Shown here in pieces: positions 3,663 to 61,435 of a stretch of 64,000 bases of DNA. The stretch's first letter is position 1. Every line of letters begins with the position of its first letter. Below the pieces are notes generated by a model. The model had not been told where the DNA came from, ran no database searches, and saw only the letters and a program-made list of their open reading frames with translations. This stretch comes from a virus (lineage: Duplodnaviria; Heunggongvirae; Uroviricota; Caudoviricetes). A program made the translations under genes and the position numbers. The DNA lies in the IMG/VR virus record IMGVR_UViG_3300025896_000021; one strand, 5' to 3'.

Positions 3663-3914
3663 ATGCAAAGAAAAACACGCAGCCTATTAGAAGAATTAGA
3701 AGCAGTCGGTCAAAATCGAGACACTAAACATGTTATTGAAAGCCGTGCTCATAATATTATCACCAGTGCTATCAATCTATTAGAAATGATTAATAAGCAT
3801 TATGATTCTGAAAAAGCTCAAATCTTGGAGAGAAAGTTGTTAAGTGCTATCAAGGCACGAGACCAGGGTAGATTCTCAAAAAGTTTGAGGAAAACCGATA
3901 ATGAGAGCGAGTGA
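3663..3914 (+). CDS. Hypothetical late protein
   Basis: 83 aa ORF after GATAAATA (3638-3645) and AGGA RBS. Confidence 0.7.
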   Translation: MQRKTRSLLEELEAVGQNRDTKHVIESRAHNIITSAINLLEMINKHYDSEKAQILERKLLSAIKARDQGRFSKSLRKTDNESE

Positions 3915-4647
3915 ATTTCAGCAGCTAAATGAAAGAAAGCTTCCACAAGCTAGACGTCCTAGACCGTTAGCAGCCCCGGCAGCACCAGTAGCAGCACCAG
4001 TACAACAAGCACCAGTAGCAGCACCAGTACAACAAGCACCAGTAGCAGCACCAAGTTCAGGATACCTTGACAAAATCAAACAAAAAATGTATTCCACTGG
4101 CCAAGGCATAGCTAATCGGTTTTCTACTCAGGGCAAAATTAGCGCACGGACTGATAAAATCTTTGTTGATAAGTTTATTAAGGATCTGAAATCAGCCGAA
4201 CAAACCTCAACCGGACTCAGGGGCCGCCCACTTGATCTACCGGAGTATATTACTAAGTATTTGGCTAGAAATAGATGGAAAGCCGGTAATCAGCAAGCAG
4301 CACTTAACCAAGCAGTTGCAACAGCGTATAAACCTCAAATTGCGAAGATTATGGCAGCAATTGGTAAAGCTAATAATCGTGCTGACGGTGCAACTACCCC
4401 CGCAGTAGCACCAGCAACTACACCAGCAACTACACCTGCAGTAACTCCGGCAACTACACCTGCAGTAGCACCAGCAACTACAACCACAGCAGCACCAGCT
4501 GGACCATCAGTTAACCCTGATGGATCAATTACTATAGCCGGCGCCAAAGGACAATCTCCTAGTAAAATTCAGCCCGGCGATCCTATGTACAAGAGCCTAC
4601 TAGCTGCCATCAATAAACAAGCTGCTAGCACGCAGCCAACTCTATAA
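3901..4647 (+). CDS. Ala/Pro/Thr-rich protein with capsid-targeting-like N-terminus (putative internal head protein)
   Basis: Starts MRASEFQQLNE; low-complexity repeats. Confidence 0.5.
   Translation: MRASEFQQLNERKLPQARRPRPLAAPAAPVAAPVQQAPVAAPVQQAPVAAPSSGYLDKIKQKMYSTGQGIANRFSTQGKISARTDKIFVDKFIKDLKSAEQTSTGLRGRPLDLPEYITKYLARNRWKAGNQQAALNQAVATAYKPQIAKIMAAIGKANNRADGATTPAVAPATTPATTPAVTPATTPAVAPATTTTAAPAGPSVNPDGSITIAGAKGQSPSKIQPGDPMYKSLLAAINKQAASTQPTL
3982..4053 (+). repeat. 27-bp coding tandem repeat (APVAAPVQQ x2.7)
   Basis: gcaccagtagcagcaccagtacaacaa twice plus an 18-bp partial copy. Confidence 0.9.
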
Positions 4648-4649
4648 TC

Positions 4650-5813
4650 ATGGAACATTCTGAATACTTACGCACCTTAGCTGACAAGATTAGCGCCATT
4701 AATACCCTGGTTGAAACTGGCGAATTAACAAAAGCTCACGTAGAGCACCCTGAAGACTTGGTTTTTCACAATGGAAGTACCGGAGCTAGTCGTGGACTAC
4801 AAGCTATTGTAGAAACAGTAAAGTCACCCGCCGCCATCACTATCAAGTGGGATGGATATCCTGCACTGATCTTTGGTAAAGGACTAGACGGGCAGTTTGT
4901 AGTGTGTGACAAGCATATGTTCAACAAGAAAGACGGTTCAGGCCGTGTTACTAGCCCACAAGCATTCGCAGCATACGATCAGGCACGTGGTATCGTTCGC
5001 GGGGACTTAGTTAACATCATTGCTAGAATCTGGCCAGGCTTGCAAAAAGCATACGCTGGTAAAGGCTATTACTGGGGGGACTTACTATTCAGTCAACCAT
5101 TGCAAGAACAAGGTGGATTGTACAAGTTTAAAGCTAATCCTAACGGAATTGCATACACTATTGAAGCAGATAGTGAAATTGGCCAATTGATTGCCGGTAA
5201 AGTTGGCGGAATCGCAGTGCATCAATATATTCCACCTGAAGCTAGCAATGTTCAATATGCTCAGTTGTTGAATGGTACTATCGGTCAATTGAAAAATAGA
5301 GGTAACGTTGCTATCGTTCCGGCAGCGATGCCAAGCGTTCCTAAACTAAAGCTCAACAAAGCAGACATATCTAAAGTACAGCAAGTAATCAATCAGAATG
5401 GTCCCGCAGCAGATAAGTGGTTACTACAAGCGCCAGCCGGAACGAAAACCGTGTTTCCTTTGATGTGTACTGTTTATATCAATAAAAAGATTGTTTCAGG
5501 TAATCTGAACAACTTAGTCGGCGACTTCTATGAATTCTTCAAAACTCGTCCTATGTCAGAGCCTATTCGTGCTAAATTGACAGAACACTTTCGTCAAAAC
5601 GAAGCAGGTATACAAGGTGCTTTTTCCATATGGATTGCTCTATATACATTAAAAATGCAAATTGAGCCTCAATTAGCTAAAGCAGCAGAACAGAGTCCAG
5701 TTAAGGGCTATCTAGCTGATGGCACTCAAAGTCAAGAAGGATTCGTTGCCCACGGTGTCAAAATCGTGAATCGTATGGGATTTTCTCGCCAGAATTTAGC
5801 CGGTAGGAACTAA
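4650..5813 (+). CDS. DUF6267-like protein with ATP-dependent ligase/capping-enzyme-like motifs
   Basis: 'HPEDLVF', 'TIKWDGYPALIFG' (KxDG), C-terminal 'QEGFVA..VKIVNR'. Confidence 0.55.
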   Translation: MEHSEYLRTLADKISAINTLVETGELTKAHVEHPEDLVFHNGSTGASRGLQAIVETVKSPAAITIKWDGYPALIFGKGLDGQFVVCDKHMFNKKDGSGRVTSPQAFAAYDQARGIVRGDLVNIIARIWPGLQKAYAGKGYYWGDLLFSQPLQEQGGLYKFKANPNGIAYTIEADSEIGQLIAGKVGGIAVHQYIPPEASNVQYAQLLNGTIGQLKNRGNVAIVPAAMPSVPKLKLNKADISKVQQVINQNGPAADKWLLQAPAGTKTVFPLMCTVYINKKIVSGNLNNLVGDFYEFFKTRPMSEPIRAKLTEHFRQNEAGIQGAFSIWIALYTLKMQIEPQLAKAAEQSPVKGYLADGTQSQEGFVAHGVKIVNRMGFSRQNLAGRN

Positions 5814-5878
5814 TTTTTTCTACCTTGCATAAATAAGTATAGAATCTAAAAGATTCATAACAAAAAAGGAAATATATT

Positions 5879-6277
5879 ATGGCAATTCAAACTAAAGTTC
5901 ATGGCAATACAAAGCCAGTTTTCGCAATCGACACCCTAGAAGGTACTGGAACTAACGCTACTGGTACGCCAGTAATGTTCTCTGGTCCTAAGTTAGACTT
6001 CTTCGGTCTTGACTTAGGTGCTAGCCCTGCAGGCGAAATGGATACTAACGAAGCTGTTGAAGCAGTTATCACTTGTATCACTCAGTTGGCAACAACTCAC
6101 TTCTACCAAGTAGAAGCAAGTGCATCAGCTAATAACATGTCTATCGCTATCTACCCAACAGCAGCTTGGACCGCAGCAACATTGCAAGTTGCAGTTCGTG
6201 CTTTAGGTACAGTAGCAGGTTACGACTTGTCTGGTGCAGCAGTTACTAACGTTGGTTTCAAACTAGCAGCAGCTTAA
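5879..6277 (+). CDS. Small, probably abundant virion protein
   Basis: Own CATAAATA (5828-5835), AAGGA RBS, strongly biased codons, own terminator. Confidence 0.55.
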   Translation: MAIQTKVHGNTKPVFAIDTLEGTGTNATGTPVMFSGPKLDFFGLDLGASPAGEMDTNEAVEAVITCITQLATTHFYQVEASASANNMSIAIYPTAAWTAATLQVAVRALGTVAGYDLSGAAVTNVGFKLAAA

Positions 6278-6294
6278 TCAATTAACTTGATTTC

Positions 6295-6328: not shown

Positions 6329-6336
6329 TATAAATA
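6329..6336 (+). promoter_or_regulatory. Perfect T4-type late promoter TATAAATA
   Basis: Exact consensus, 4 nt before ATG 6341. Confidence 0.8.
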
Positions 6337-6340
6337 GTGT

Positions 6341-7311: not shown

Positions 7312-8049
7312 ATGAAACTTACAGAATTCAACAATAAAAAAACAACAGTAGCACAAAAGGCTCTGAAAGAGCATTTCAATACAACATTCAATGTTGAAAA
7401 ATTAGGTCTTTACGAGACTAGAAAAATGCTTACTAAGGTTAAAGGTCTTATGTCCGAAGCTAAAGGACGCTCAATGAGTGGTGAACAAAATCCTGCTTAC
7501 TTGAAGCTAGTGTTCATGGAACAAGCATTGACTCATCACTATGGTGATCTACGAACTATGCCTATGTACAATACTCGTATCGTAGTAGAGAATGAAGAAG
7601 TTGAGAAATCACAAGTCGTTCTAGCCGCACAAGAGATGGTTGACACTATGCAAAAGATGGTAGAGCAAGTATCCGACATGCTAGTTAAAGAATTACCAGC
7701 AGTAGTTGACGGTGTTAACAGTGAGTTTGGTACAAGCGAAGGTGAACAATTCAGCAGTCAAGTATCAGAAGCATTGACTTCATTACAAGCCGCTATTGCA
7801 CAATCTAAAACAGGATTGCTAAGTGCATTAGGCATTATCACTGGTCAAGGCGGCGGCTTCGGTGGCGACATGGGCGCTATGGGCGGAGATGAGATGGGTG
7901 CTGATATGGGCATGGGCGGCGACGAGATGGGAGCTGACATGGGTGGCGAAATGGACGGTGCTGATATGGGTTCAGAAATGGGCGCAGAAGAAATGCCAGC
8001 AGAAGAACCAGAAGAGCCGATGCCATCAGTTGGACGTGCAAAGCGTTAA
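7312..8049 (+). CDS. Helical, acidic protein with Met/Gly/Asp-rich tail; possible prohead core/scaffold-type protein
   Basis: Start moved to ATG 7312 (GATAAATA 7279-7286, AGGA RBS); begins MKLTEF; GGDEMGADM repeats. Confidence 0.4.
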   Translation: MKLTEFNNKKTTVAQKALKEHFNTTFNVEKLGLYETRKMLTKVKGLMSEAKGRSMSGEQNPAYLKLVFMEQALTHHYGDLRTMPMYNTRIVVENEEVEKSQVVLAAQEMVDTMQKMVEQVSDMLVKELPAVVDGVNSEFGTSEGEQFSSQVSEALTSLQAAIAQSKTGLLSALGIITGQGGGFGGDMGAMGGDEMGADMGMGGDEMGADMGGEMDGADMGSEMGAEEMPAEEPEEPMPSVGRAKR

Positions 8050-13113: not shown

Positions 13114-13121
13114 TATGTTCC

Positions 13122-14780: not shown

Positions 14781-14808
14781 AGTACTCTTATTTATCGTTT
14801 TTCAAAGG

Positions 14809-14837
14809 TTGACATTAAATGGTTTTGGGTATATAAT
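14809..14837 (+). promoter_or_regulatory. Perfect sigma70 consensus promoter
   Basis: TTGACA-17bp-TATAAT. Confidence 0.9.
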
Positions 14838-14870
14838 ACATACATAGACAGTTAATTAAAGGGGTTTAAA

Positions 14871-15233
14871 ATGGCACGTAAAACTAAAGCAGAAATGGCA
14901 CTTGAGGCAGCAAACGCCCGGGCAATGGCTGATGCAGAAGCAGAAGCTACATATCTTCCTCGCTTGATGGCAGCATTGGCTCAAGCAACCAATGATAACT
15001 TTGAACTGACCGTTGAGGATAATCTGTTTGTTGCCCGTGACAGAGACAGCAACACCCGCGCCACTTTCGCAATGAGTCCTACTTACACTCGTGAAGCATG
15101 GGAACTGGACAGTCTGGAAAGCTATCTGGCAGAGAAGGAAGCTGCCCGCGTTGAAAGCGAACGCAAGTACCTTGTTAGATTGTCGGCTCTGAACAAGCTC
15201 ACCTCAGAAGAAAAACAACTTTTGAACCTGTAA
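14871..15233 (+). CDS. Hypothetical early protein
   Basis: 120 aa, AAGGGG RBS, downstream of consensus sigma70 promoter, GC-richer codons. Confidence 0.75.
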   Translation: MARKTKAEMALEAANARAMADAEAEATYLPRLMAALAQATNDNFELTVEDNLFVARDRDSNTRATFAMSPTYTREAWELDSLESYLAEKEAARVESERKYLVRLSALNKLTSEEKQLLNL

Positions 15234-15246
15234 GGGAAAACATAGT

Positions 15247-15275
15247 TTGACAAAAAAGTCAGACTATGTTATACT
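15247..15275 (+). promoter_or_regulatory. sigma70-type promoter
   Basis: TTGACA-17bp-TATACT. Confidence 0.85.
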
Positions 15276-15308
15276 ACACACTAAGTAATCGCAACATAGG
15301 AAATAAAA

Positions 15309-16496: not shown

Positions 16497-16678
16497 TGAG
16501 TGCAACAAAAGAACGAATGACAGAGTTAATGGATTTGATTGACAAGTCAATCCAGTTAACTGATAATCAAAATGACATGCTAATGCTAGCATGTGCAATG
16601 ATGCAACGAACTAATGAGATTTTTACTCAAGTTCTAGGTGAAGAAGGAAAAAAATTAATGTATAAGGACATGGTATGA
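16490..16678 (+). CDS. Small hypothetical protein
   Basis: 62 aa, translationally coupled overlaps on both sides. Confidence 0.6.
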   Translation: MVMSATKERMTELMDLIDKSIQLTDNQNDMLMLACAMMQRTNEIFTQVLGEEGKKLMYKDMV

Positions 16679-17109: not shown

Positions 17110-17110
17110 T

Positions 17111-17869: not shown

Positions 17870-17895
17870 GATAAATATAGTATCTGGAGTAAACA

Positions 17896-18666
17896 ATGGC
17901 AATACAACAATCCCAACAATTAAACGAAATCAAAGAAGAATTATTTAGAAATTTAAGGCTACGTCTGGGTGAGGGTATCATTGATTTAGAACTTGATCCA
18001 GAACACTTTGAAGCTGCATATAGATATGCGGTACAGGTATATCGTCAAAGGGCTCAGAATGCTACGGAAGAAGCGTATACATTAATGACACTTCACGCCC
18101 ATCAAACCGACTATACTTTGCCTAGAGAGTTTATCAATGTGCGTCAGGTATTTCGTAGAACAGTTGGTCTGGAGACAGGGCCTGCAGCTAGTTCATTCGA
18201 TCCATTCTCTAGTGCTATTCTAAACACTTATCTATTGAACTACAACTACGCAGGTGGTTTAGCAATGTACGATATGTATGCAGGATATATTGAGTTAGCT
18301 GCACGTATGTTCGGCGGATATGTCATTTACACCTTCAATAACGTAACCAAAGAAATCAAACTAGTTCGTAACGTCAAAGGTGATGGAGAACAAATTCTTA
18401 TCTGGGCTGACATTCAAAAACCGGAATCAACACTATTACTAGACCCGGGTTCAGGTGTATGGATCGGTGACTGGACACTGAGTCAATTAAAGTATACTAT
18501 GGGTGAGGCACGTGAAAAGTTTGCTAGCATTGCAGGACCGGGTGGCGGCACTAGCTTAAACGGAGCAGCATTAAAGTCAGAAGCAAAAGAGATGCAACTT
18601 ACACTATTGGAAGACTTGAAACGATATGTTGATTACAGTCAGCCGCTAACATGGGTGCAAGGCTAA
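17896..18666 (+). CDS. 13: Neck/head-tail adaptor protein (T4 gp13-like)
   Basis: 'RLRLGEGIIDLEL', 'YTLP..FINVRQVF', 'QLKYTMGEAREKF..GPGG..LNG'; GATAAATA 17870-17877. Confidence 0.75.
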   Translation: MAIQQSQQLNEIKEELFRNLRLRLGEGIIDLELDPEHFEAAYRYAVQVYRQRAQNATEEAYTLMTLHAHQTDYTLPREFINVRQVFRRTVGLETGPAASSFDPFSSAILNTYLLNYNYAGGLAMYDMYAGYIELAARMFGGYVIYTFNNVTKEIKLVRNVKGDGEQILIWADIQKPESTLLLDPGSGVWIGDWTLSQLKYTMGEAREKFASIAGPGGGTSLNGAALKSEAKEMQLTLLEDLKRYVDYSQPLTWVQG

Positions 18667-19049
18667 TGAGATCCTTTGAATTTATCATAGAATCCGCACA
18701 GCGTGTAGGGCCCGTCTATCACGGGACAAGTGGTTCCTTTACTAATTTTAATGATGCTACATTGGGAACCAGTACAGGTGATCCCAACACAGTGTTAGGA
18801 CATTTTTTTACTTCCTCAAAAGAAGAAGCACTACTGTATGGTAAAAATATCATCGCTGCTCAATTAGTACTGCGCAATCCATACGAAGCTACTATGGATG
18901 AGTTGGTTGGTTTGGATGAAGAAGATTATCAAACAATGCGTGAAGAACTGATAGGAGATGGATACGACAGTATTATTGCTCCGCATGATGAAGGTGATGG
19001 CGTGTGGTATGTTGCATTCTCTGATAATCAAATTAAAATAATACAATAA
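18666..19049 (+). CDS. Putative ADP-ribosyltransferase-fold protein (ART-PolyVal-like) with capsid-targeting-like N-terminus
   Basis: Start at ATG 18666, MRSFEFIIES; 'VYHGT..F..F', 'GHFFT...A..YG', 'GYDSII', 'YVAF..NQIK'. Confidence 0.55.
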   Translation: MRSFEFIIESAQRVGPVYHGTSGSFTNFNDATLGTSTGDPNTVLGHFFTSSKEEALLYGKNIIAAQLVLRNPYEATMDELVGLDEEDYQTMREELIGDGYDSIIAPHDEGDGVWYVAFSDNQIKIIQ

Positions 19050-19063
19050 GGTTAACCTAAACA

Positions 19064-19093
19064 TTGACTTTTGACACACTCCTGTAGTATACT
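19064..19093 (+). promoter_or_regulatory. sigma70-type promoter
   Basis: TTGACT-18bp-TATACT. Confidence 0.7.
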
Positions 19094-19115
19094 TGTGCTA
19101 TAGGAGTTTTTCTTT

Positions 19116-27011: not shown

Positions 27012-27614
27012 ATGAAAAGCCTCAGACATTACTTAACAGAAAGCGTTCATACGTATCGTTATACGATTAAAATCGTCGGCGAACTTGACAAAAACTTTCT
27101 GGACATGTTCACGTACAACTTGAACAAATTCGATCCTGTTAAAATTGAAGACCCGAAGACTACCCCAATTCAGAAAAACCCATATGGTTTCCCTGGTGCG
27201 GAAGAAAATCAAAGTGTAACAATTATCAAAGCTGAATTCAAATATCCAGCAACAGAACCAATGATTCAGCAAATTGCTCAACAACTTGGGTACAACATCA
27301 ATAATGTTAGAGTAATGACTACTGATTACAATGATAGTATCAATGCTGAGAACGACAAGTATGCAAATGAAGATGACTCTGACAAGCCATTATTAGATCA
27401 AGAAACATTACCAGACAATGGTAAAGAAGCAAGCAAAGACTATGCAAATCAATACTTAGATAAGGTTCTTCCTAAGAAGCCTAGTCTTGATATGCAGTAC
27501 GATGCAAAGAAAACCCCAACAGCCCCAAATAATAGTAAAGAAGGTGTTAACACTAAGAGCCCATTCAGTAGTGTTAAGATGCCTCCTAGACCAGAGACTG
27601 GGGCCAGAAAATGA
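27012..27614 (+). CDS. Hypothetical head-associated protein (MKSLRHYLTES)
   Basis: GATAAATA 26986-26993; capsid-targeting-like N-terminus. Confidence 0.55.
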   Translation: MKSLRHYLTESVHTYRYTIKIVGELDKNFLDMFTYNLNKFDPVKIEDPKTTPIQKNPYGFPGAEENQSVTIIKAEFKYPATEPMIQQIAQQLGYNINNVRVMTTDYNDSINAENDKYANEDDSDKPLLDQETLPDNGKEASKDYANQYLDKVLPKKPSLDMQYDAKKTPTAPNNSKEGVNTKSPFSSVKMPPRPETGARK

Positions 27615-27832
27615 TTGATTTCAACGCTAGCCAATTAACATGGATAGTTATCGGTGCTTGCTCAATGGGCGGCACGGGATATCTTACAATGGACGGCAAG
27701 ATGAAAGAATTAGATACTAAAATTGAAATTAGTAGTGTAAAGATGGACAACGTTAAAGTTGATCTTGCTGAACTACACAAGCAACTAGTACGTATCGAAG
27801 ACAAATTAGACAAGAAACAAGGATTAAAATAA
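27611..27832 (+). CDS. Small single-TM coiled-coil protein
   Basis: Hydrophobic 'LTWIVIGACSMGGTGYL' followed by a heptad pattern. Confidence 0.55.
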   Translation: MIDFNASQLTWIVIGACSMGGTGYLTMDGKMKELDTKIEISSVKMDNVKVDLAELHKQLVRIEDKLDKKQGLK

Positions 27833-30147
27833 TGGATTTCAGAAAACTACTCCAATCAATGAACACTCTTTCCGAGGCTACTAAAGAGACTCCGACAGGA
27901 AAGATTCACACTGCTGATCCAGGTGGCTATGGTCGTAAAGACGACGAAGATGCTGATGGTAACCCGGTTAAGCAAGCACCACCTGCTGTTAAGCGTGGTA
28001 AAGGTCGTCCTCCAAAAGCAGGCCCAGCTGATAGCAAACCTGATTGGTCTGCATTTGGCGCCAGTGGTAAAGATGTTAAGTTACCTAAGTGGGATAAAAA
28101 GAAAACAATCAAGCACAGCTTAAAAGACTGGATTGAAAGTGCCGGAGTTGATATGCTAGCTGAGGGTCGTGTAAAACAACTTCAGATGGATTTGCGTGAA
28201 TTGACTGACCAGGAATTTCAAGCTACTTACAAGATGACTAAAGCTGAAGCACGTGCTGGTTTAGCTGATAAGAAGCCTGTGTCTGAAGAAGGTGGAATCA
28301 CTATCAAGCCAATGCCCGGTGCATCACAAATCATGGGTGCTGACAACAAACCAATTGGTACTGCTGATGCAGCAACTGCTAACACAATCAAACAAGCAGC
28401 CGAAAAAGGTACGTTGAACTTAGCGGGTGATGACGAGCAAGGTCAACAGATGAATGAAAAGTGGGATACCAAAATGGATACCCCTGCATCTGAAAAAGGT
28501 AAGTATGCTGGTAAGAGCAAGAGCGAATTGCTTAAGGCTTACAATCACTTGAAGTCTACTGGCCCTCATCAAGAAGGCAGCAAGCCATACAGCAACATGA
28601 AAGAACTAGCATTTGCTATTCGTGCTAAAGGTAAGTTTGGTAAAGTACAAGATCAAGAAGCAGTATCTGAAGCAAAAGATTTACCAGGTAAGCAAGAAAA
28701 ATTAGATGTTGCTCCACCAAAAGGTAAATTGACTGGTGCAGATTTCAAAGCATTAGCTAAGAAGAAAGTTAAAGAAAGTTTAAGTTTCACTGAAATGATG
28801 CAAGAAGCTGGTACTGACGTGAATGATATGATGTCAGAATTGCAAAAAGATATTGACACATATACTAAGACTGGACATTGCAGTGATAAGTTAGAAGCAT
28901 TTCTAAAAATTCATGGTCATTCAAAAAAGAAAATGGCTGATGAAGGTTTAGGCGGTGGCATTGGCGGCGCAGTATTAGGTGGTGCGTTAGGCGGCCCACT
29001 AGGAGCTATCGGTGGCGGTTTAGCAGGTAATGCAATTACCGATGAAGGTTCTAAAGAAGACTTCACTACTCACGGCATGGACAGCAAGCCATCAAGATTC
29101 AACATGGTTGATGCTAATCCTAAGCCAACATCATGGAAAGTAGATCCAATTCAAGCAACAACTGACCGAGCTATTGACGCTGGGGCAAAAGCAGGTAGTT
29201 TCCTTAGAAACTTAGTCGCACCAAAGAAAACATTTGAAAGCAAAGATATGAAAGACGTACAACTAGAGAGCTGGGAAAAAGAATTAAATTCATTATTGTC
29301 TGAGGGTTTCACTGTAACAAGTAGCCAAGGTCAACAAGGTACACCTGATTCAGTTAGCATCAATGCTACTGATTCTGACGCAGCAGAACTAATGGCTCTA
29401 GTAAAACAAGCTGGTTTAGGTATCTTTGGTGGCGGGGGCGAGCAAGCAACTAGTGCATACGGTGCACCAATGAGCGGCGATGAAGGTGGCAGTGGTAATG
29501 ATCCTCAAGCAAGTCCTTCAGTAGTCGGCGACGGTGATGATATGATGGCATTGATTAAGAAAATGTCTGGAATCCAAAGTGCTCCGCCTACTGGTGGTTT
29601 TGCTGATCAAGGTGGCGAGCAAGAAGAACATGGTCAAGATGGTCCAGAAGGAACATTGACCCCTGACTACGAAGAAGAAGACGGTGTTGCAGATGGTCAA
29701 GGCGAAGGCGAAGAAGAAACTACTGACGAAGGCAATGCTTTTGGTGGTGCAGTTGCTAAAGCTAAGTCTGATAACATCCCTGACGCAGGTCAGAAAATCA
29801 AAGTCGGTGGACAAGAGTACCCAGTTAAAGAACAAGGTCAAGTACCTCAGATGGGCGAAGAAGAACACATGCACGAAGAAGGTGGTTCATGTAACGAATG
29901 CGGTATGTTTGAAGCACGTTGCGTTTGTTCAACTGATGGTAAAGAACAAGTAGAAGAATATGCAAATGATGCAGGTAACGAACAAATGGCTCACTTGAAG
30001 CATATGCTAGGTCAAGGTAATGATTTGCACCGTGAAAAACATAGCCAAGCAGTCGGTAATCCAACTAAAGTTACATTTGAAACTAAGTTGTTAAAGGATT
30101 CTAGCAACTTGCTAGTAGACTGGAAAAAGTTAAGCGGAATAAAATAA
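27832..30147 (+). CDS. 771-aa low-complexity acidic/basic mosaic; putative internal head polyprotein
   Basis: Many hydrophobic-X-E sites separating short charge-biased segments; one glycine zipper. Confidence 0.5.
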   Translation: MDFRKLLQSMNTLSEATKETPTGKIHTADPGGYGRKDDEDADGNPVKQAPPAVKRGKGRPPKAGPADSKPDWSAFGASGKDVKLPKWDKKKTIKHSLKDWIESAGVDMLAEGRVKQLQMDLRELTDQEFQATYKMTKAEARAGLADKKPVSEEGGITIKPMPGASQIMGADNKPIGTADAATANTIKQAAEKGTLNLAGDDEQGQQMNEKWDTKMDTPASEKGKYAGKSKSELLKAYNHLKSTGPHQEGSKPYSNMKELAFAIRAKGKFGKVQDQEAVSEAKDLPGKQEKLDVAPPKGKLTGADFKALAKKKVKESLSFTEMMQEAGTDVNDMMSELQKDIDTYTKTGHCSDKLEAFLKIHGHSKKKMADEGLGGGIGGAVLGGALGGPLGAIGGGLAGNAITDEGSKEDFTTHGMDSKPSRFNMVDANPKPTSWKVDPIQATTDRAIDAGAKAGSFLRNLVAPKKTFESKDMKDVQLESWEKELNSLLSEGFTVTSSQGQQGTPDSVSINATDSDAAELMALVKQAGLGIFGGGGEQATSAYGAPMSGDEGGSGNDPQASPSVVGDGDDMMALIKKMSGIQSAPPTGGFADQGGEQEEHGQDGPEGTLTPDYEEEDGVADGQGEGEEETTDEGNAFGGAVAKAKSDNIPDAGQKIKVGGQEYPVKEQGQVPQMGEEEHMHEEGGSCNECGMFEARCVCSTDGKEQVEEYANDAGNEQMAHLKHMLGQGNDLHREKHSQAVGNPTKVTFETKLLKDSSNLLVDWKKLSGIK

Positions 30148-46394: not shown

Positions 46395-46403
46395 GGAAAC
46401 ATA

Positions 46404-52541: not shown

Positions 52542-52554
52542 GTATAAATACAAT

Positions 52555-53631
52555 ATGCAATTTAAAGAATTAGATAAATTTAAGCTGGATGATGCCATCC
52601 ACTTCCATGACCACTTGAACCCAGCAGTGTTCAAAGGTGATCATTTGAGAGATGATGTACGCAAAAAATTGTTACTTATTGCAGAAGATTTCGTTGAACA
52701 TTTAGGAATCAACGACATAGACATAGCGGACATTACTATTTCAGGTAGTAATGCAGCATACACATACACTGCGCACAGCGACATTGACCTACACATTTTA
52801 GTAGATATAAAGAGTTTTGAAGACGATGATGTATACCGTGAACTGTTTGACGCAAAAAAGACGGTATATAACGAACAACACGACATTAAGATTAACGGAT
52901 ATGAAGTTGAAGTATATGTACAGGATAGTGATGAGCCTGTAATTAGTCTGGGTGAATACTCAGTAATGAACAACAAGTGGATCAAATTGCCTAGAAAGCG
53001 CAAAGCTGACTTTGATCAAATGGCTACTAAACTAAAGTACCGTAAATTATACAGATTAGCTAAGTACGCACTACAAGCGAAAACACCAGATAAGATTCAA
53101 AATGTATTGAAGACATTAAAGAAGTACAGACAAGCAGGATTAGATTCACTGGGTGAATTCAGTCCTGAAAATTTAGCATTCAAAGCATTACGTAGCAAGG
53201 GTGTTATTCAGAAACTATACGACAAGTTGAATGACTTGCATAGCGAAACATTGAGTATTCCTGAGAGTGAAAACTTAGATAAGCGTACACTAAATGTTGA
53301 TGACCTGGCAAGAAAACATCGTGTATCGAAAGATTATCTATTAGATCAATTAATGAAGGGCATCGGTATTGAGTCCGAGCATACTAGTAATTTTGATATT
53401 GCAGCAGAGATTGCATTAGATCATTTAGGTGAGAATCCAAACTACTATGAGCTACTTAAAAAAGCTAGCTTAGAAGAATGCGGTTATATTCCTAGTGAAA
53501 GCGAAAGAAATGATCCAAGATTTAAAACAGCACTAACAGTTGATATCACTCCAAATTCAATCAAAGATAATGCTAGAAGATTAGGAAGCAATATACAACG
53601 TGACGGACGACCACCGTTGCTACGACCATAA
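52555..53631 (+). CDS. Pol-beta-superfamily nucleotidyltransferase fused to a DUF5661-like domain
   Basis: 'ISGSNA.Y.Y..HSDIDLHIL'; 'KGIGIESEHT...IALDHL.ENPNYY'; start at ATG 52555, 4 nt after TATAAATA (52543-52550). Confidence 0.75.
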   Translation: MQFKELDKFKLDDAIHFHDHLNPAVFKGDHLRDDVRKKLLLIAEDFVEHLGINDIDIADITISGSNAAYTYTAHSDIDLHILVDIKSFEDDDVYRELFDAKKTVYNEQHDIKINGYEVEVYVQDSDEPVISLGEYSVMNNKWIKLPRKRKADFDQMATKLKYRKLYRLAKYALQAKTPDKIQNVLKTLKKYRQAGLDSLGEFSPENLAFKALRSKGVIQKLYDKLNDLHSETLSIPESENLDKRTLNVDDLARKHRVSKDYLLDQLMKGIGIESEHTSNFDIAAEIALDHLGENPNYYELLKKASLEECGYIPSESERNDPRFKTALTVDITPNSIKDNARRLGSNIQRDGRPPLLRP

Positions 53632-55434: not shown

Positions 55435-55473
55435 TAGATGTTTTGATAAATATATTATAAACGGAATTTATCT

Positions 55474-56403
55474 ATGAAAATCAGTAATTTAACAGAAACA
55501 ATGGCTACCCCAGTGTCAATGCCATCACCGGGACAACCGGGCGCAAAGTTTGGTCGTAGCGATGAAATGCTAGAATCAGGTGTAGGAACTAGCACTGCAG
55601 GCGGTATGGCACCTAGTGCAAAACCAATGGGCAAGATGCAAAGACGTGGGCAAGGCAGCATGTTTCAAGGTATCAAGACTAGCAGCAAGTTTGCGAACAG
55701 TGCAAAGGCTGGTATTAAAGAAGATACAGTTAATGAAGACGAATTGAGCGAAGAACAACTACAAGCTAAACAAAAGCGTGAAGATATATTCAACCGTGCA
55801 AAAGATAAAGAATTAGGTAACAAGCCTAAATCAAAAGATATTATTGCTAAAGAAGCAACTGGTCGTGGAACATGGGATAGTAACGCAAGTGACTACGAAG
55901 GTGATTATGGTGGTTCACGCAATTGGGGGCGTAGAGAAAGAGAAGATGACGAGCATCATCACATTGACAGAGCCCGTGAAAAACAAGAACAATCCGGCAC
56001 ATGGTATGTTGCTATCAACGGTAAAGTTGTAAAAGATAAAGCTGGTCAACCTTACACATTCTATGGTAAAGCAGCAGCAAACAAAGCAGCATTAACTATG
56101 CAAGCTAAACCGTTCAATTCAGGAAAGCAATTTATGCTTACTACAAATCCTAATCCACCTGAGCAAGGTGTGGCGGAAGTAGCACCTCCTGGAGCTAAAG
56201 CTGAACGCATGGTAAAGCACATTAAAAAGGGTTATGCTAAAGACGGCAAACTAACTCCTAAAGAAAAATCAATTGCTTATGCCACTACATGGAAAGCACA
56301 TAATGCCGGTAAAGTAGAAGAAGATTGCTGGGATGGTTACGAGCAAATCGGCATGAAGAAAAAAGGTGGCAAGACAGTGCCTAACTGTGTACCAAAGAAG
56401 TAA
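55474..56403 (+). CDS. Modular basic protein, putative internal head polyprotein
   Basis: MKISNLTE; GATAAATA 55445-55452; segments ending in E, including QGVAE; C-terminal 'CWDGY..GMKKKGGK.VPNCVP'. Confidence 0.55.
   Translation: MKISNLTETMATPVSMPSPGQPGAKFGRSDEMLESGVGTSTAGGMAPSAKPMGKMQRRGQGSMFQGIKTSSKFANSAKAGIKEDTVNEDELSEEQLQAKQKREDIFNRAKDKELGNKPKSKDIIAKEATGRGTWDSNASDYEGDYGGSRNWGRREREDDEHHHIDRAREKQEQSGTWYVAINGKVVKDKAGQPYTFYGKAAANKAALTMQAKPFNSGKQFMLTTNPNPPEQGVAEVAPPGAKAERMVKHIKKGYAKDGKLTPKEKSIAYATTWKAHNAGKVEEDCWDGYEQIGMKKKGGKTVPNCVPKK
56165..56177 (+). repeat. AAGGTGTGGCGGA copy 3
   Basis: Encodes (Q)GVAE in ORF 55474. Confidence 0.9.
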
Positions 56404-56405
56404 TT

Positions 56406-56714
56406 ATGAAACTCAACGAATTAATCACTGAATCCATTGATGTAAAAGAAGTTGCTGCTTGGCAAAAGAAGTCAGGTAAGAATAAGACCGGTGGATTGAA
56501 TCAAAAGGGTGTTGACTCATATCGTAGAGAACATCCTGGTAGTAAACTACAAACAGCAGTTACTACTAAGCCTTCAAAATTAAAAGCAGGCAGTAAAGAC
56601 GCAAAGCGTAGAAAAAGTTTCTGCGCTAGAATGAGTGGCATGGAAGGTCCAATGAAGGATGAACATGGTGAACCAACTCGCAAAGCATTATCATTAAAGA
56701 AGTGGAACTGTTAA
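56406..56714 (+). CDS. DUF6321-like basic protein with capsid-targeting-like N-terminus
   Basis: MKLNELITES; 'AWQKKSGKN..GGLN.KG', 'RRKSFCARM', 'KW.C'. Confidence 0.65.
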   Translation: MKLNELITESIDVKEVAAWQKKSGKNKTGGLNQKGVDSYRREHPGSKLQTAVTTKPSKLKAGSKDAKRRKSFCARMSGMEGPMKDEHGEPTRKALSLKKWNC

Positions 56715-56715
56715 T

Positions 56716-58119
56716 ATGAATTTTCAAGAATTATACGAAGGCACAACGCCTAAACTACCCGGCGCCCCACAAGGCGTAAAAGTTATGTCTATGGATCAAT
56801 TCGTTGGTCAAGCTGGACAATCTCAAGAACAACCTGAAGAAGAAGTTGCAGAAGAAGTAGACATGGGTCAAGCTGAAAAGCGCACACCACCAAAAGATAG
56901 CCGTGAAGATGACGATAGAGTTTTTAACGCCTTCAGAGAAAGACTGCGAAAACTAAAAGGTGAAGACTTAGACGAAGCTACTGCACTACCGGCACAACAA
57001 CGTGAATTAGGTTCTCAAGAATTTCAAGACTACATGGGTCGTATCAAAGGAACCGATGATATTGATAAAAAGACCGGCGAGATTAAAGTAAACAAAAAAG
57101 GTGTGCAGCAGTATACTACTGGTAAGACTAAGACAGACAAGTATAAGATGCCATATGTTCACCGTAGTAGTGCTATTGAGTATTATGATGAAGGTGGAAA
57201 GAGATACAAAGAAGAAGCTGTTATTGCTGCATTGCAACAACGTCCTAAGAAGTTGTTAAAGCAAAATGAAAAGATGAAACATAGCAACGGAGAGTTTGAA
57301 CAATTCTTTAACGTTGGTTTTGCAGCATTAACTGGTATCGCAGTTGATGAATCTACTGGTAAACTTATTGTAGTTAACACATGCCCAGGTGCTGGTTCAT
57401 GTAAAGTTGACTGTTTCGCTATGAAGGGCGGCAAAGTACAATTCAAAGCTGCTTGGTTAAGCGATGGTCGTATTCTAACTTATCTATTGAATGATCCAAC
57501 CGGTTTCTTCAAACAGTTAAGTGCAGAGATTGCTAAAGAAGAACGAGATGGCGCAAAAGGATCAAAGGGATTTGAAGGTGGATGGAGAGTGACAGTTCGT
57601 TGGCACGATGCTGGTGACTTCTTCTCACCAGAATACTTAGACATGGCATTGAAGATGGCTGCTGCTCACCCTAATGTTAAATTCTACGCTTATACCAAAA
57701 TGGCAGGTGCTGCAATGGCACAAAAGCCTGACAACTTCATTATTAACTGGAGTGAAGGCGCAAGTTCTGGTCAAGAGAAACAAGTTAAAGCTCAAGACCC
57801 TAACTTAGAGACAACTAAGAACAGTCGTATTGTTCCAGAGAAGTTATTCTATGACTTGTTAGCTAAAGATGAGAAGGGTAACTTAGTTAAGACCGCTGAT
57901 GGTGCATGGCAACCTGCTAGCCCAGAAGCACTACAGCAAATGAAGCAACGTATTGGTCAGGCGTACAGTATCAGCCCATCAAGTATTCTAAGCTACAATG
58001 AATATACTTCAAAGCCTAAAGTTGCTGGCATGAAGTATAATGTTATCGTTGCTCCGGGTGAGGGAGATGTTTCTGCCAACGATCCTAATGTACTAAGTAC
58101 ATTACTATTAAGGCATTAA
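56716..58119 (+). CDS. Phage Gp88-like (putative Fe-S) domain protein with N-terminal charged modules
   Basis: 'TCPGAGSCKVDCFA' (CX5CX3C), 'VRWHDAGDFFS', 'FYAYTK'. Confidence 0.6.
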   Translation: MNFQELYEGTTPKLPGAPQGVKVMSMDQFVGQAGQSQEQPEEEVAEEVDMGQAEKRTPPKDSREDDDRVFNAFRERLRKLKGEDLDEATALPAQQRELGSQEFQDYMGRIKGTDDIDKKTGEIKVNKKGVQQYTTGKTKTDKYKMPYVHRSSAIEYYDEGGKRYKEEAVIAALQQRPKKLLKQNEKMKHSNGEFEQFFNVGFAALTGIAVDESTGKLIVVNTCPGAGSCKVDCFAMKGGKVQFKAAWLSDGRILTYLLNDPTGFFKQLSAEIAKEERDGAKGSKGFEGGWRVTVRWHDAGDFFSPEYLDMALKMAAAHPNVKFYAYTKMAGAAMAQKPDNFIINWSEGASSGQEKQVKAQDPNLETTKNSRIVPEKLFYDLLAKDEKGNLVKTADGAWQPASPEALQQMKQRIGQAYSISPSSILSYNEYTSKPKVAGMKYNVIVAPGEGDVSANDPNVLSTLLLRH

Positions 58120-58120
58120 A

Positions 58121-58561
58121 ATGTTATCTGACAACTTAAAGACATTACTGGCTTCAACTGAATTGTTCTCGTTGAAGTCTCGTAACTTTCATTGGAATAT
58201 TGAAGGTAGTAACTTCCCGCAATATCATGAATTCTATGACAACCTGTACAACGATTCATATGCGACTATAGATAGAATTGCAGAGTATATCAGGGTGTTA
58301 GATGCATATGCTCCTGCAAGTTTAACTCGCTATGCTGAGTTGTCAATCATTCAAGATCAAATAAAGATTCCACGTGCAGAACTAATGTTTGCTGAATCAT
58401 TAGTGGACTGTCAAAAAATGATCGTATTAGTAATAGAGATATTTGATGTTGCCTCTGCTGAACGTCAGCAGGGCATTGCAAACTTCATGGCAGAACTACA
58501 AGACTTCTATGGTAAGAAATCATGGATGATTCGCTCTATCTTAAAGAAAGATAGAGAGTAA
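58121..58561 (+). CDS. dps: Dps / DNA-binding mini-ferritin
   Basis: 'NFHWNIEGSNF..YHE.Y..LY...DRIAEYIR'. Confidence 0.9.
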   Translation: MLSDNLKTLLASTELFSLKSRNFHWNIEGSNFPQYHEFYDNLYNDSYATIDRIAEYIRVLDAYAPASLTRYAELSIIQDQIKIPRAELMFAESLVDCQKMIVLVIEIFDVASAERQQGIANFMAELQDFYGKKSWMIRSILKKDRE

Positions 58562-59181
58562 TGAGAGCAATTGAATTCATCACAGAAACTGAATCATATC
58601 AACCACCTGAATTAAGTGTTGGTGATAAGATACTTAAAGGTAAATTTAAGAATAGCCCAGCAGAGATTAAAGGCTTCACTAAAGACAAGCACAATCAACC
58701 TGTGTTAAAAACTAACAAAGGTGAAGTACAGTTGTTCAAGCCTCGTGTTGCTAAGTTGATGAAAGAGGTAGAACTAACAGAACTATTCGCCCCTGACAAA
58801 GATTGGAAATGGGATTATAACAGTCCAACTGAATCTGAAGCAACATTTGTAATAGGTGATATACAGTACAAATTCTATGCGTATTCATCACAACCCGGAA
58901 CTTGGGAAGTAGAGTTTAAGATAGTAGAAGGTGGTGACCCAGGTAATAGATTTGGTGTTACTGGTACAGGTAATGCTGCACAAGTTATGTCTACTGTTAC
59001 TGATATCCTACGAGCCTTCCTAGAGAAACATAAAGGGCAGATATCTAAGTTGATATTTTCTGCCAAGGAATCATCACGACAAGCACTATATGCTAAAATG
59101 GCAAAACGCCTATTGCCTAATTGGAATTTAGAACATTTTAAGAGTGAGTTTTCACTAACTGCACCTGAGGTAACTAAATGA
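58561..59181 (+). CDS. Two-module hypothetical protein with capsid-targeting-like N-terminus
   Basis: MRAIEFITE; modules separated by MKE/LTE; 'GVTGTGNA..V.STV'. Confidence 0.6.
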   Translation: MRAIEFITETESYQPPELSVGDKILKGKFKNSPAEIKGFTKDKHNQPVLKTNKGEVQLFKPRVAKLMKEVELTELFAPDKDWKWDYNSPTESEATFVIGDIQYKFYAYSSQPGTWEVEFKIVEGGDPGNRFGVTGTGNAAQVMSTVTDILRAFLEKHKGQISKLIFSAKESSRQALYAKMAKRLLPNWNLEHFKSEFSLTAPEVTK

Positions 59182-59945
59182 GAGCAACCGAATTTATCAA
59201 CGAGGAAATAAACCCGGATATTCTTGATTCACGCTTTAGTCACAAGCAAAAGATTGGTGCATATACATATACCGCTGCACTGGAACCCGATAGATTCCAC
59301 AAAGCAGATTTGTTTGTTATTAGATGCTATAACCGTACTAAAATGATCGGACAAGCTAAATTCTACACAACATTCGGTGACTCACTAGTAAGCGCACTAA
59401 CAACAGTACAGCCAGAGTATCAACAATCAGGTATCGCAAGTACAATGTATGCTTATGCTAGAATGCTAGGCAACACGATAGAACCTAGTGCTTCACAATT
59501 GCCACCTGGTAAGAAGATGTGGAAAGCGTGGAAGAAGTCAGGTGAAGCTAAACACTTGATGAAAGAAGACGCAAGTTCTACTACTCTAGCGCAATTATAC
59601 AACGGAAACTATCCAGATCGTGACGAAACATTCTGGGACTATGTTAGTCCGCATGAATTTAATACACCACTAACTATTCAAACATTGGCAAGGCATAAAG
59701 TAATGATTACATTGCTTGGTCAGTATCGTGCAGAACATATTGACGATGTAGTAGATATGTTAGATGATGACAGAAAAGAACTAGTACAATCATATGTAGA
59801 TGATCCTGCACTATCAAGTAAAGTCATTGTGCTTTCAGGAGATAGAATCATTGATGGGAATCATCGTGCATTAGCTGCTGCAATCAAAGGTGTACCTATC
59901 AATTATGTTGACGTAGCTGATTTAGAAGACTCTGAAGAAAGCTAA
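59178..59945 (+). CDS. GNAT-like acetyltransferase plus ParB/Srx-like domain, capsid-targeting-like N-terminus
   Basis: MRATEFINE; 'VQPEYQQSGIASTMY'; 'IIDGNHRALAA'. Confidence 0.65.
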   Translation: MRATEFINEEINPDILDSRFSHKQKIGAYTYTAALEPDRFHKADLFVIRCYNRTKMIGQAKFYTTFGDSLVSALTTVQPEYQQSGIASTMYAYARMLGNTIEPSASQLPPGKKMWKAWKKSGEAKHLMKEDASSTTLAQLYNGNYPDRDETFWDYVSPHEFNTPLTIQTLARHKVMITLLGQYRAEHIDDVVDMLDDDRKELVQSYVDDPALSSKVIVLSGDRIIDGNHRALAAAIKGVPINYVDVADLEDSEES

Positions 59946-59946
59946 T

Positions 59947-60651
59947 ATGAAGACATTAGCAATATTTGGCGATAGCTATGGTAGAAAAGACGCGCCTGAT
60001 ATCCAAGAACGGTCTTGGGTAGACTTCATCCAAGATACTAACACTTACGATATCACTAATTTTGCAGAAACTGGTACTAACTTGTGGTTTAGTTATGCGT
60101 TGTTCTTAAAGAATCATCAAAATTTTGATAAAGTTATCTTTCTTGTGACCGCACCGCATCGTATGACATTGACTAATCTTAAGTTCACTATCTATCCTAA
60201 TCAAAACTATGAAGCAGCACTAGTTAAATTAGGGCATTCTACTAACGAAGAATACAAACAATATAAGTTGCTAGTTGATTACTATGAATACATTCACGAT
60301 ATTGACAAAGATGAGACACTACATCAGTTAATGGTATCTGATGTACAGCAAAAAAGACCAGATGCAATAGTCTATCCATGTTTCACTGTTCCATATCTGA
60401 ATGATACTGGATTATATGAAGTGACTAAATACGAAGATGAGTTTTTAGGAATGAATCACGTTGTACGAAAAGAATTTTACAATAAAAAGCTGCGAGATAG
60501 TAGAAATTGTCATATGATAGAAGATAATAATCGTATTGTAGCTGAAATGTTCTTAGATAGATTGTCTGGATCATATAGTGAGATAGACATGAAATCTTTA
60601 GTAAGACCTACTAAAGGTTTAGATTTTTACTACCAATCAAAGTGGCACTGA
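59947..60651 (+). CDS. SGNH/GDSL-like hydrolase-fold protein
   Basis: 'LAIFGDSYG', 'SW', 'NFAETGTN', late 'NCH'. Confidence 0.5.
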   Translation: MKTLAIFGDSYGRKDAPDIQERSWVDFIQDTNTYDITNFAETGTNLWFSYALFLKNHQNFDKVIFLVTAPHRMTLTNLKFTIYPNQNYEAALVKLGHSTNEEYKQYKLLVDYYEYIHDIDKDETLHQLMVSDVQQKRPDAIVYPCFTVPYLNDTGLYEVTKYEDEFLGMNHVVRKEFYNKKLRDSRNCHMIEDNNRIVAEMFLDRLSGSYSEIDMKSLVRPTKGLDFYYQSKWH

Positions 60652-60652
60652 A

Positions 60653-60736
60653 ATGAGCGAACGAAACAATGAATACCCGGTAATACCGGAGGACGATGGT
60701 TACGATAGATTTCGTAATCCATACAGTCCTGTATAG
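60653..60736 (+). CDS. Possible 27-aa peptide MSERNNEYPVIPEDDGYDRFRNPYSPV
   Basis: ATG 1 nt after the upstream stop; too short to confirm. Confidence 0.35.
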   Translation: MSERNNEYPVIPEDDGYDRFRNPYSPV

Positions 60737-60850
60737 ATCACACTACCTTAGGACCCTTGTGGTTTTCGTGTGGGCCGGCTGCTGGCCAGAGAAGTATATG
60801 GAGTCGTGCCCTGATATCTCTAAAGTGAGCACTAATTTGATAAATATATA

Positions 60851-61435
60851 ATGCGCTATAATGAATTTATCTTTGAATCCGCTGCTACTGAGTTAGCAGA
60901 CAAACTCCCGTCACTAAAAAAGCACGATTACAGTACAATTGACAAATTGATGAAGCGAATCAGTGCAAGACATGATATTGACGGTAAGAAATTGCATGAT
61001 ATGTTTGTTAGCAAGTACGGTCACACTCCTGATACGTGGGTGAAAAAGATCAAAAACAGAATGGACGAATCAGTAGACAATACTGAAAACTTAGACCAAA
61101 TCAGAGACTTTGTTCAATGGGCAATCAAAACATTAAACGTTCAAAAACCTTATCCAAAGATCAAGTTAAGCACTGATACTAAAGACGCACAAGTCAATCA
61201 TCGTACTGGTATGCACACAGACGATGGCCACATATTAGTCTATATCAAAAATCGCAATTTAGTAGATATTTTTCGTACATTGTTCCACGAACTTGTGCAT
61301 GAGAGACAAGATCAATTGAACATGATTGGTCCCGATGATAGTTACCCCGGTTCACCCATCGAAGCGATGGCAGATATGATGGCAGGGAAGTATATTAAGA
61401 TATACGGCAAAGAACATCCCGAAATATTCCAATAA
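60851..61435 (+). CDS. HExxH zinc-metallopeptidase-like domain with capsid-targeting-like N-terminus
   Basis: MRYNEFIFES; 'FRTLFHELVHERQ' and downstream 'E..AD'; GATAAATA 60839-60846. Confidence 0.7.
   Translation: MRYNEFIFESAATELADKLPSLKKHDYSTIDKLMKRISARHDIDGKKLHDMFVSKYGHTPDTWVKKIKNRMDESVDNTENLDQIRDFVQWAIKTLNVQKPYPKIKLSTDTKDAQVNHRTGMHTDDGHILVYIKNRNLVDIFRTLFHELVHERQDQLNMIGPDDSYPGSPIEAMADMMAGKYIKIYGKEHPEIFQ

Follow-up and report, generated by a model that had tools for sequence, protein, structure and literature searches.

A T4-like capsid-targeting leader as the probable N-terminal tag of late proteins in an uncultured jumbo phage

The first ten residues of the bacteriophage T4 internal protein IPIII are enough for head targeting; targeting depends on residues 4 and 7 of the T4 leader and processing on residues 8 and 10, and gp21 cuts after the Glu of an L/I-X-E motif (PMC9026906). 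In the T4 record this leader reads MKTYQEFIAE/A in ipII and ipIII (here and below, a slash follows the last leader residue) and begins MKTFKEF in ipI; the other N-termini of that record considered here are those of gp24 (MAKINELLRE/S), gp22 (MLKEQLIAE/A), gp67 (MEGLIE/A) and gp21 (MNEPQLLIE/T). The present work concerns a similar peptide, referred to as the leader, which is found at gene starts in a stretch of 64,000 nucleotides (the window) of the IMG/VR virus record IMGVR_UViG_3300025896_000021 (Caudoviricetes). A preliminary description of the window had listed twelve such proteins, compared their N-termini with the T4 targeting sequence, which it quoted correctly, and proposed that a dozen or more proteins, many of them enzymatic, are loaded into the head and ejected with the DNA. 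Judging from sequence, we consider it likely that the peptide M-[RK]-x-x-E-[FL]-[ILV]-x-E, together with variants of 8, 10 and 11 residues, is the version of the T4 capsid-targeting sequence used by this lineage and is cut by its prohead protease.

This leader is a variant of the known T4 system and not a new kind of system. As in T4, a peptide of about ten residues ending in L/I-x-E precedes unrelated proteins encoded by apparently late, clustered genes, the window phage belongs to the T4 superfamily, and its relatives encode a gp21-type protease. The resemblance asserted in the preliminary description is real, since the E-F-I-x-E core and the gp21 motif are common to both. The commonest form found here, MRAxEF[ILV]xE, is one residue shorter than MKTYQEFIAE and its core lies one residue nearer the initial Met. 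Unlike in T4, the leader is carried by many more and much larger proteins, enzymes included, and is known from sequence alone. T4 Alt is a head-packaged and ejected ADP-ribosyltransferase; the window gene 18666 (genes are designated by their start coordinate) likewise encodes an ADP-ribosyltransferase with a propeptide-like leader among late structural genes. Alt falls in the R-S-E clade, whereas the 18666 protein falls in the ART-PolyVal family and has 127 residues and no further domains (classification according to PMC5512222).

Two other described systems are close. In the giant phages phiKZ, 201phi2-1 and SPN3US, many proteins inside the head are likewise cleaved after Glu by a protease related to gp21, but at S/A-x-E sites and behind long, non-uniform propeptides (PMC9026906); the leader examined here is short and uniform, ends in [L/I]-x-E and occurs in a different jumbo clade. 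Polyvalent proteins, predicted to be packaged and injected with the DNA, carry two to fifteen conflict-related domains per polypeptide, characteristically ART-PolyVal, zincin metallopeptidase, pol-beta nucleotidyltransferase, GNAT and DdrB-like ParB domains, and the portions of their description used here include no common N-terminal targeting peptide (Iyer et al. 2017, PMC5512222).

All twelve peptide starts are present on the plus strand of the window (Table 1). Three correspond to an internal ATG of the longest open reading frame (ORF), and public gene calls select the same internal starts for 7312 (245 amino acids) and 52555 (358 amino acids). The leader genes are closely coupled to their neighbours, for example through TAATG or ATGA overlaps. 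Their bodies are unrelated, as previously proposed: an all-against-all BLASTP comparison performed without residues 1-12 gave E = 0.067 for the best pair. The loose pattern M...E[FL] occurs 23 times in the six frames of the window, 10 times at the start of a long ORF. A position-specific scoring matrix (PSSM) was trained only on the leader arrays of other contigs (G005, G008 and L007). It assigned scores of 6.6 to 24.3 to six window gene starts (59178, 58561, 18666, 60851, 56406 and 3901) and exceeded zero at none of the 380 internal Met sites (Fisher p = 9e-6). A simple test derived from T4, namely [L/I]-x-E with its Glu at positions 6-11, was positive for 15 of 67 gene starts versus 16 of 375 internal Met sites (p = 5e-6). 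The pattern at the gene starts of the window is beyond chance.

The strict consensus M-[RK]-x-x-E-[FL]-I-x-E is followed by 18666, 56406, 58561, 59178 and 60851 and, more loosely, by the 11-residue variant of 3901. Variants sharing the fixed [L/I]-x-E end are found in 27012 (10 residues) and in 55474 and 56716 (8 residues), so that 9 of the 12 genes have this end at a constant place. The notion of a single family therefore holds for nine proteins, six of the strict type and three variants; 7312, 8052 and 52555 are weak members or outsiders. For the window, the figure of a dozen or more was too generous: nine leaders are credible, two are doubtful and 52555 probably has none.

The window is part of the genome of a jumbo myovirus of the T4 superfamily, with a G+C content of 39-43%. 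Its tail sheath protein, 1200 residues long, has counterparts in Agrobacterium phage Atu_ph07 and Sinorhizobium phage Phosso (47% identity each) and in Pseudomonas phage PA5oct (44%). Freshwater-type metagenome contigs carry proteins identical to those of the window. The nearest complete relative is G016, an IMG/VR contig of 345 kb (99% complete), which shares 50 of the 67 window genes in conserved order at a mean amino-acid identity of 47%. The leader-bearing group consists of uncultured freshwater or environmental jumbo phages of about 340 kb within the PA5oct/Atu_ph07 clade.

The exact DNA pattern of the leader matches at least 120 IMG/VR stretches, and related contigs display arrays of six to eight consecutive genes, each starting with MRAxEF[ILV]xE. 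The IMG/VR counts given here and below (209, 200, 188 and 61) rest on 1.06 Mb of matching stretches and refer to the matches listed. Within these loci, 200 of the 209 six-frame matches to the PSSM lie at ORF starts. At least 188 distinct leader proteins of 54-725 amino acids were obtained, often two to six per locus, and Glu is found at position 9 in 170 of the 188. Synonymous codons differ at Ala3, Phe6, Ile/Val/Leu7 and Glu9 and the DNA upstream is not conserved; selection therefore acts on the leader peptide. Orthologs of about 47% identity maintain [L/I]-x-E at its fixed position while the adjacent residues change. Codon 2 is an exception, Arg being encoded by AGA in 29 of 31 cases versus 31% genome-wide (35 leader genes from the window and its relatives), which suggests an effect on translation initiation in addition to the constraint on the peptide.

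Leader proteins would share a compartment with a protease cutting at [L/I]-x-E, and internal copies of this motif are therefore expected to be counterselected. Relative to expectations computed from composition, the bodies of the 188 leader proteins hold 182 internal [L/I]-x-E motifs for 237 expected (ratio 0.77), versus 3454 for 2893 (1.19) in the remaining proteins of six related contigs. Bootstrapping places the difference between the two ratios in a 95% interval of -0.55 to -0.32. The cargo-to-background ratio of [L/I]-x-E, 0.65, is the lowest among 16 control motifs, the values being 0.98 to 1.15 for [L/I]-x-D, [L/I]-x-Q, [L/I]-x-K and E-x-[L/I], and 0.81 for [V/M]-x-E. For [L/I]-x-D, the ratio of observed to expected is 1.17 in leader proteins and 1.15 in the background. 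When each BLAST cluster is given equal weight, this ratio becomes 0.74 for [L/I]-x-E and 1.20 for [L/I]-x-D. The nine credible leader proteins of the window hold 7 internal sites for 12.6 expected, compared with 132 for 116.5 in its other proteins, and T4 IPI-III hold none for 2.7 expected.

The context of the leader genes is of the late type. The heptamer ATAAATA, which we take from T4 and cyanophage late promoters to be the core of a T4-type late promoter, is not enriched in number (27 copies in the window for 20.5 expected). Nevertheless, 22 of the 27 copies fall in intergenic DNA, which makes up 6.8% of the window (binomial p = 1e-13), and almost all of these stand 11-57 nucleotides upstream of a start on the same strand. 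All twelve listed genes stand behind ATAAATA, which also lies upstream of the genes for the tail tube, the head-tail adaptor and other structural proteins of the virion; the exonuclease gene and three others are preceded instead by sigma-70-like promoters of the form TTGAC-N-TATAAT. No replication gene carries the leader, and the motif is thus not as common on early or replication genes, the outcome that the preliminary description had named as adverse. Promoter context therefore indicates that the leader genes are probably expressed late, together with the virion-structural genes. The exact T4 late promoter TATAAATA was considered as well and discarded, being not enriched in the window (4 matches for 5.7 expected). 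At 6341, 52555 and 60851, ATAAATA ends 4 nucleotides before the ATG (window 6330-6340, 52544-52554 and 60840-60850); if transcription starts as at T4 late promoters, the corresponding mRNAs would be leaderless or nearly so.

A single prohead protease of family PF03420 (Peptidase_S77) was found in each of the seven long leader-bearing contigs (G007, G008 and G016-G020), and PF03420 is present in PA5oct, Atu_ph07, Phosso and a Vibrio relative as well. The G016 protease gene is located at 195584-196210 on the minus strand. None is encoded within the 64-kb window, which is a part of the genome with the head module outside it, and none was found in G001, G002 and G005, contigs holding loci related to the window. 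N-terminal L-x-E motifs are carried by the major capsid protein of relatives (MSNRLFE/S, MSKLFE/S, MSQELLE/G) and by their prohead protease (MARQLYE/Y, MANFLTE/A, MALYLRE/N). In this clade, the portal gene is directly followed, where T4 has gene 67, by a gene for a conserved small protein (64-86 amino acids in most cases) with a central motif of the RKxRLTLKxLNKLRK type. Such an ORF follows the portal gene in most of 80 loci (L076-L155). Annotated only as hypothetical or structural, this protein, which includes PA5oct gp333 and Atu_ph07 gp199, may be the counterpart of T4 gp67 in the clade, with a lineage-specific N-terminus. PA5oct gp333 begins MKINDIITE/G and is annotated 'structural protein, ESI-MS/MS'. 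The same motif class is found at this position in Phosso (MRYNEFSKE/S), Atu_ph07 (MKLTEL...LTE/S) and G006 (MRYRELIKE/N), and in L076 (MRSNEFLVE/Y), an IMG/VR locus from the same sample as the array of L007. The proposal that the cargo leader is the contig's own N-terminus at the gp67 position was rejected as a general rule by a co-variation test. The PA5oct ortholog of 27012, gp282, is also annotated 'structural protein, ESI-MS/MS'.

From these observations we infer the following path. The leader proteins would be made late, and their N-terminal peptide would dock them on the core of the assembling prohead. The T4-type protease would then cut after the Glu of the leader, and the mature proteins would stay in the head with the DNA and be delivered to the next host. 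The cargo predicted for the window would comprise an ADP-ribosyltransferase, a zincin-like peptidase, a GNAT/ParB-like protein, a GP88-domain protein and several small basic proteins.

A number of observations weigh against this assignment. The DNA pattern of MRxxEF is at control level in PA5oct, Atu_ph07, Phosso and Vibrio phage 2.275.O. A looser pattern adds two sites in PA5oct, at the start of gp075 and a few codons within gp213, genes that both lack mass-spectrometry support. The N-terminus of PA5oct gp282 has no Glu (MKSFRDYYDAS), and this protein may lie in the head or in the neck of the virion. The complete relative G016 holds only five strict leaders in 345 kb, and family size therefore varies strongly among lineages. 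At the gp67 position, G007, G008 and G016 display MILNE or MVLTE starts (MILNEVYQ in G016) despite their MRAxEF cargo, and the G010 and G011 lineages (MILRELFYFD) have no matching cargo. The sequences entering the depletion test are not phylogenetically independent, and with 23 clusters below the [L/I]-x-E expectation and 9 above it, the cluster sign test gives only p = 0.02. The depletion is therefore supportive and not decisive, since the families are not fully independent. Finally, the Tat signals and GH19 domains found directly after the leader in some relatives (see below) fit a secreted late enzyme as well.

The leader could alternatively send components of the assembly core or scaffold to the prohead, where they would be degraded or expelled at maturation instead of being ejected as cargo. 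The same motif class at the start of the putative core protein at the gp67 position, the similar cleaved N-termini of T4 gp22, gp67 and gp68 (PMC9026906) and the acidic coiled coil with a scaffold-like tail encoded by 7312 are all in keeping with such a role. We nevertheless regard it as improbable for the family, most bodies being folded enzyme domains or basic proteins and not acidic coiled coils, and internal cleavage motifs being depleted and not enriched; in T4, by contrast, core proteins are reduced to numerous fragments. There is a comparably small chance that the leader is read by a machine other than the capsid, as a tag for the chaperone/Clp proteostasis genes, an N-terminal modifying enzyme or an export pathway. 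The window does encode a ClpA/B-like AAA+ protein and DnaJ, and some leaders are directly followed by a Tat signal, but the depletion is specific to the gp21-type [L/I]-x-E and does not extend to [L/I]-x-D, -Q or -K, the leader closely resembles proven T4 propeptides and is neither hydrophobic nor signal-like, and only a ferritin-like gene, no conserved modifying enzyme, accompanies the arrays. It is very hard to believe that the common start is a nucleic-acid feature whose peptide has no role, be it an enhancer of translation or a joint at which genes are shuffled by recombination: the AGA bias at codon 2, a recurring GAATT and the shuffled arrays speak for it, but the synonymous freedom at positions 3, 6, 7 and 9, the use of I, V or L at position 7, the absence of the leader from highly expressed structural genes (sheath, tube) and the internal [L/I]-x-E depletion, which a DNA-level element leaves unexplained, speak against it.

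In line with the preliminary description, enzymes are among the predicted cargo, with ART-PolyVal and nucleotidyltransferase domains and leads to a GNAT domain and a zincin peptidase; 7312 looks core- or scaffold-like instead. Pfam domains were identified in 61 diverse IMG/VR leader proteins: GH19 in 6, DUF6267 in 5, GNAT families in 2 and ParB_N in 1, in addition to ADPrib_exo_Tox, Kinase-PolyVal, Amidoligase_2, Phage_lysozyme2 with LysM, GP88 and DUF6321. Leader cargo appears to have in common with polyvalent proteins (PMC5512222) ART-PolyVal, pol-beta nucleotidyltransferase, zincin, GNAT, ParB-like, amidoligase and kinase domains; in the window, ART-PolyVal is clear, the nucleotidyltransferase match is weak, and zincin, GNAT and ParB are leads. 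Polyvalent proteins string many domains in one chain, whereas the window proteins possess only one or two, in solo genes with short leaders. The 52555 and 60851 domains are fused with an amidoligase in single proteins of 1595 and 1603 amino acids in G007 and G008; in the window each lies in a gene of its own, that of 60851 with a leader. Covalent linkage appears to be replaced by a short leader on each module, and the domains strung together in the 1600-residue polyvalent proteins of relatives would be separate genes here, each with its own leader.

In some relatives, the leader is followed by a twin-arginine (Tat) signal and a GH19 muramidase (L225:2992-3609, L273:3861-4493, and G007 near 152744 on the minus strand). 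A cut after Glu9 would expose the Tat signal at the new N-terminus. These proteins could be re-exported to the periplasm after injection, or could be secreted late enzymes in which the leader has another role. A broader and distinctly more tentative reading is that the nine-residue leader defines the whole injected proteome, polyvalent proteins being split into addressed modules and the Tat-GH19 cargo being re-exported to the periplasm.

If the leader works as in T4, the injected proteins of a large group of uncultured phages can be listed from their genes. Such a list would contain what the phages deploy first against host defences (ADP-ribosyltransferase, peptidase, acetyltransferase, nuclease-like and cell-wall enzymes) and hence testable candidates for counter-defence functions, and the leader would serve as a compact, transferable tag with which foreign proteins could be packed into the heads of jumbo phages. 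It would join two fields so far treated apart, that of the internal proteins of T4 and that of injected 'polyvalent' proteins. Depletion of the internal cleavage motif is a simple test that could flag head-resident proteins in other phages.

Table 1. Position of the leader genes, neighbouring genes and promoter-like motifs (window coordinates unless a contig is named; slash, end of the leader)
Feature	Position	Strand	Remarks
Strict leader MRSFEFIIE/S, followed directly by an ADP-ribosyltransferase domain	18666..19049	+	PSSM 18.2
Strict leader MRAIEFITE/T, 206-residue protein	58561..59181	+	PSSM 21.2
Strict leader MRATEFINE/E, 255-residue protein	59178..59945	+	PSSM 24.3
Strict leader MRYNEFIFE/S, 194-residue protein with HExxH	60851..61435	+	PSSM 15.2
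Leader MKLNELITE/S, very basic 102-residue DUF6321 protein	56406..56714	+	PSSM 8.5
11-residue leader variant MRASEFQQLNE/R, Pro/Ala-rich 248-residue protein	3901..4647	+	PSSM 6.6
10-residue T4-like leader MKSLRHYLTE/S, 200-residue protein	27012..27614	+	conserved across the clade
8-residue variant MKISNLTE/T, basic 309-residue protein	55474..56403	+	[L/I]-x-E
8-residue variant MNFQELYE/G, 467-residue GP88-domain protein	56716..58119	+	Pfam GP88, E = 2.5e-24
Doubtful member, start MKLTEFNNKK	7312..8049	+	PSSM -1.8; only MxxxEF in common, no nearby [L/I]-x-E
Doubtful member, start MRLYEFSDAD, acidic, 106 residues	8052..8372	+	PSSM -3.8; MxxxEF only, no nearby cleavage motif
Nucleotidyltransferase and DUF5661 protein	52555..53631	+	PSSM -14.9; no [L/I]-x-E
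Added candidate, second leader type MDFRKLLQSMNTLSE/A, 771-residue protein	27832..30147	+	resemblance only
Ferritin/Dps-like gene	window 58121-58561; G008 33744-34187; G007 147183-147668; G016 340931-341371		
ATAAATA before the cargo operon 55474-60651	55446..55452	+	late-type promoter-like motif
ATAAATA before the units of other leader genes	3639, 7280, 17871, 26987, 52544, 60840		

Among the strict leader genes, the start of 18666 overlaps the stop of the head-tail adaptor gene 17896-18666 through TAATG, and its product matches ART-PolyVal (Pfam PF18760, E = 1.7e-13). The 58561 protein displays a weak match to DUF6934, and its orthologs keep the leader (MRAIEFINE in G001, MRANEFVTE in G005). 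For the body of 59178, Atlas features point to GNAT at 0.81, with Pfam GNAT matches below threshold, and a ParB-like DGNHR motif is present; both are leads. The HExxH of 60851 reads HELVH and is zincin-like. Peptidase_M78 is found among its viral Atlas neighbours (14% of one cluster, score 0.95), again as a lead, and a PHROG search returned only a weak match to an uncharacterised PHROG. The 60851 body constitutes an internal domain of the long G007 and G008 proteins. The DUF6321 match of 56406 is strong (E = 4.6e-24; isoelectric point, pI, 10.2), and DUF6321 proteins with their own leader are found in G001 (MRFNEIISE) and G008 (MKITEFVTE); cyanophage homologs have no leader and form the C-terminal domain of large proteins encoded between g16 and g17. 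The proteins of 3901 (pI 10.4), 55474 and 56406 are all basic, with pI values in the range 9.5-10.4. Gene 3901 overlaps gene 3663-3914 and shares its transcript; the product of 3663-3914 matches phrog_11854, 'virion structural protein'.

The ortholog starts of 27012 are MKTFKDYLAE/A in G006, MKTFAQYLIE/S in G016 and MKTFADYLTE/S in G011, the first two nearly matching the T4 sequence; the gene has an ATAAATA of its own. A relative of 55474 in G016 begins MNLNTLFE/N. The orthologs of 56716 begin MNFKELLE/G in G001 and MRFNELQE/T in G016, and L-x-E is therefore fixed at positions 6-8. As for the doubtful members, 7312 encodes an acidic coiled-coil protein (pI 4.5) with a Gly/Asp/Met-rich tail. 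This protein matches phrog_14154, 'virion structural protein' (E = 1.4e-9), and a core or scaffold-like role in the virion is more likely for it than that of an ejected enzyme; the G016 ortholog of 8052 begins MRLDEIEQG. The 52555 protein matches DUF5661 (3.3e-12) and, weakly, NTP_transf_2 (9.7e-4). It aligns from residue 1 with the 1595- and 1603-residue proteins, and its orthologs are devoid of the cleavage motif as well. Its N-terminus probably belongs to the conserved nucleotidyltransferase domain, as the alignments suggest, and is no leader. It is a candidate injected protein all the same because it matches the N-terminus of a 1600-residue polyvalent protein in relatives. The added candidate at 27832 starts with MDFRKLLQSMNTLSE, which resembles the starts of genes just after the prohead protease in Atu_ph07 (MDFRQIRALLE/G and MSIRKFLNIINE/S) and Phosso. 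Pfam and PHROGs gave nothing significant for 3901, 8052, 27012 and 59178, and tblastn searches of cultured phages with 7312, 56716, 60851 and 18666 gave no matches with virion evidence.

The 55474 protein contains an internal EQGVAE junction. The 13-base word AAGGTGTGGCGGA occurs three times in the window (50810, 51296 and 56165), each time in frame as (K/Q)GVAE, twice within the cytidylyltransferase-like protein of 538 amino acids encoded by 49918-51534 and once within 55474. All copies lie at joins of dissimilar segments and may be internal protease sites or recombination joints.

The virion genes of the window (tail-tube, gp15-like, head-tail adaptor and head-closure) are interspersed with those for a primase, a DnaB-like helicase, an exonuclease, a clamp loader, PhoH, DnaJ and a ClpA/B-like ATPase. 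DnaJ, the ClpA/B-like double-AAA+ protein (757 amino acids) and PhoH are encoded at 45597-48677 and 42825-43652. Other leader types and families were encountered in related contigs. In L009 (9677-11318, contig G003), three adjacent genes start with MIRFKTFMNE/S, MIRFKAFISE/D and MRFKTFINE/A, ending in [I/M]-x-E; G003 is a T4-like phage of about 160 kb with PF03420, and its leaders represent another variant. About ten genes for proteins of 66-88 amino acids in G005 (12788-21809) and G002 (10590-34466) start with MNERI(K/R)xLAxQAG and form a paralogous family unrelated to the leader. The ferritin/Dps-like gene, devoid of a leader, is located within or beside the leader arrays in all four genomes compared.

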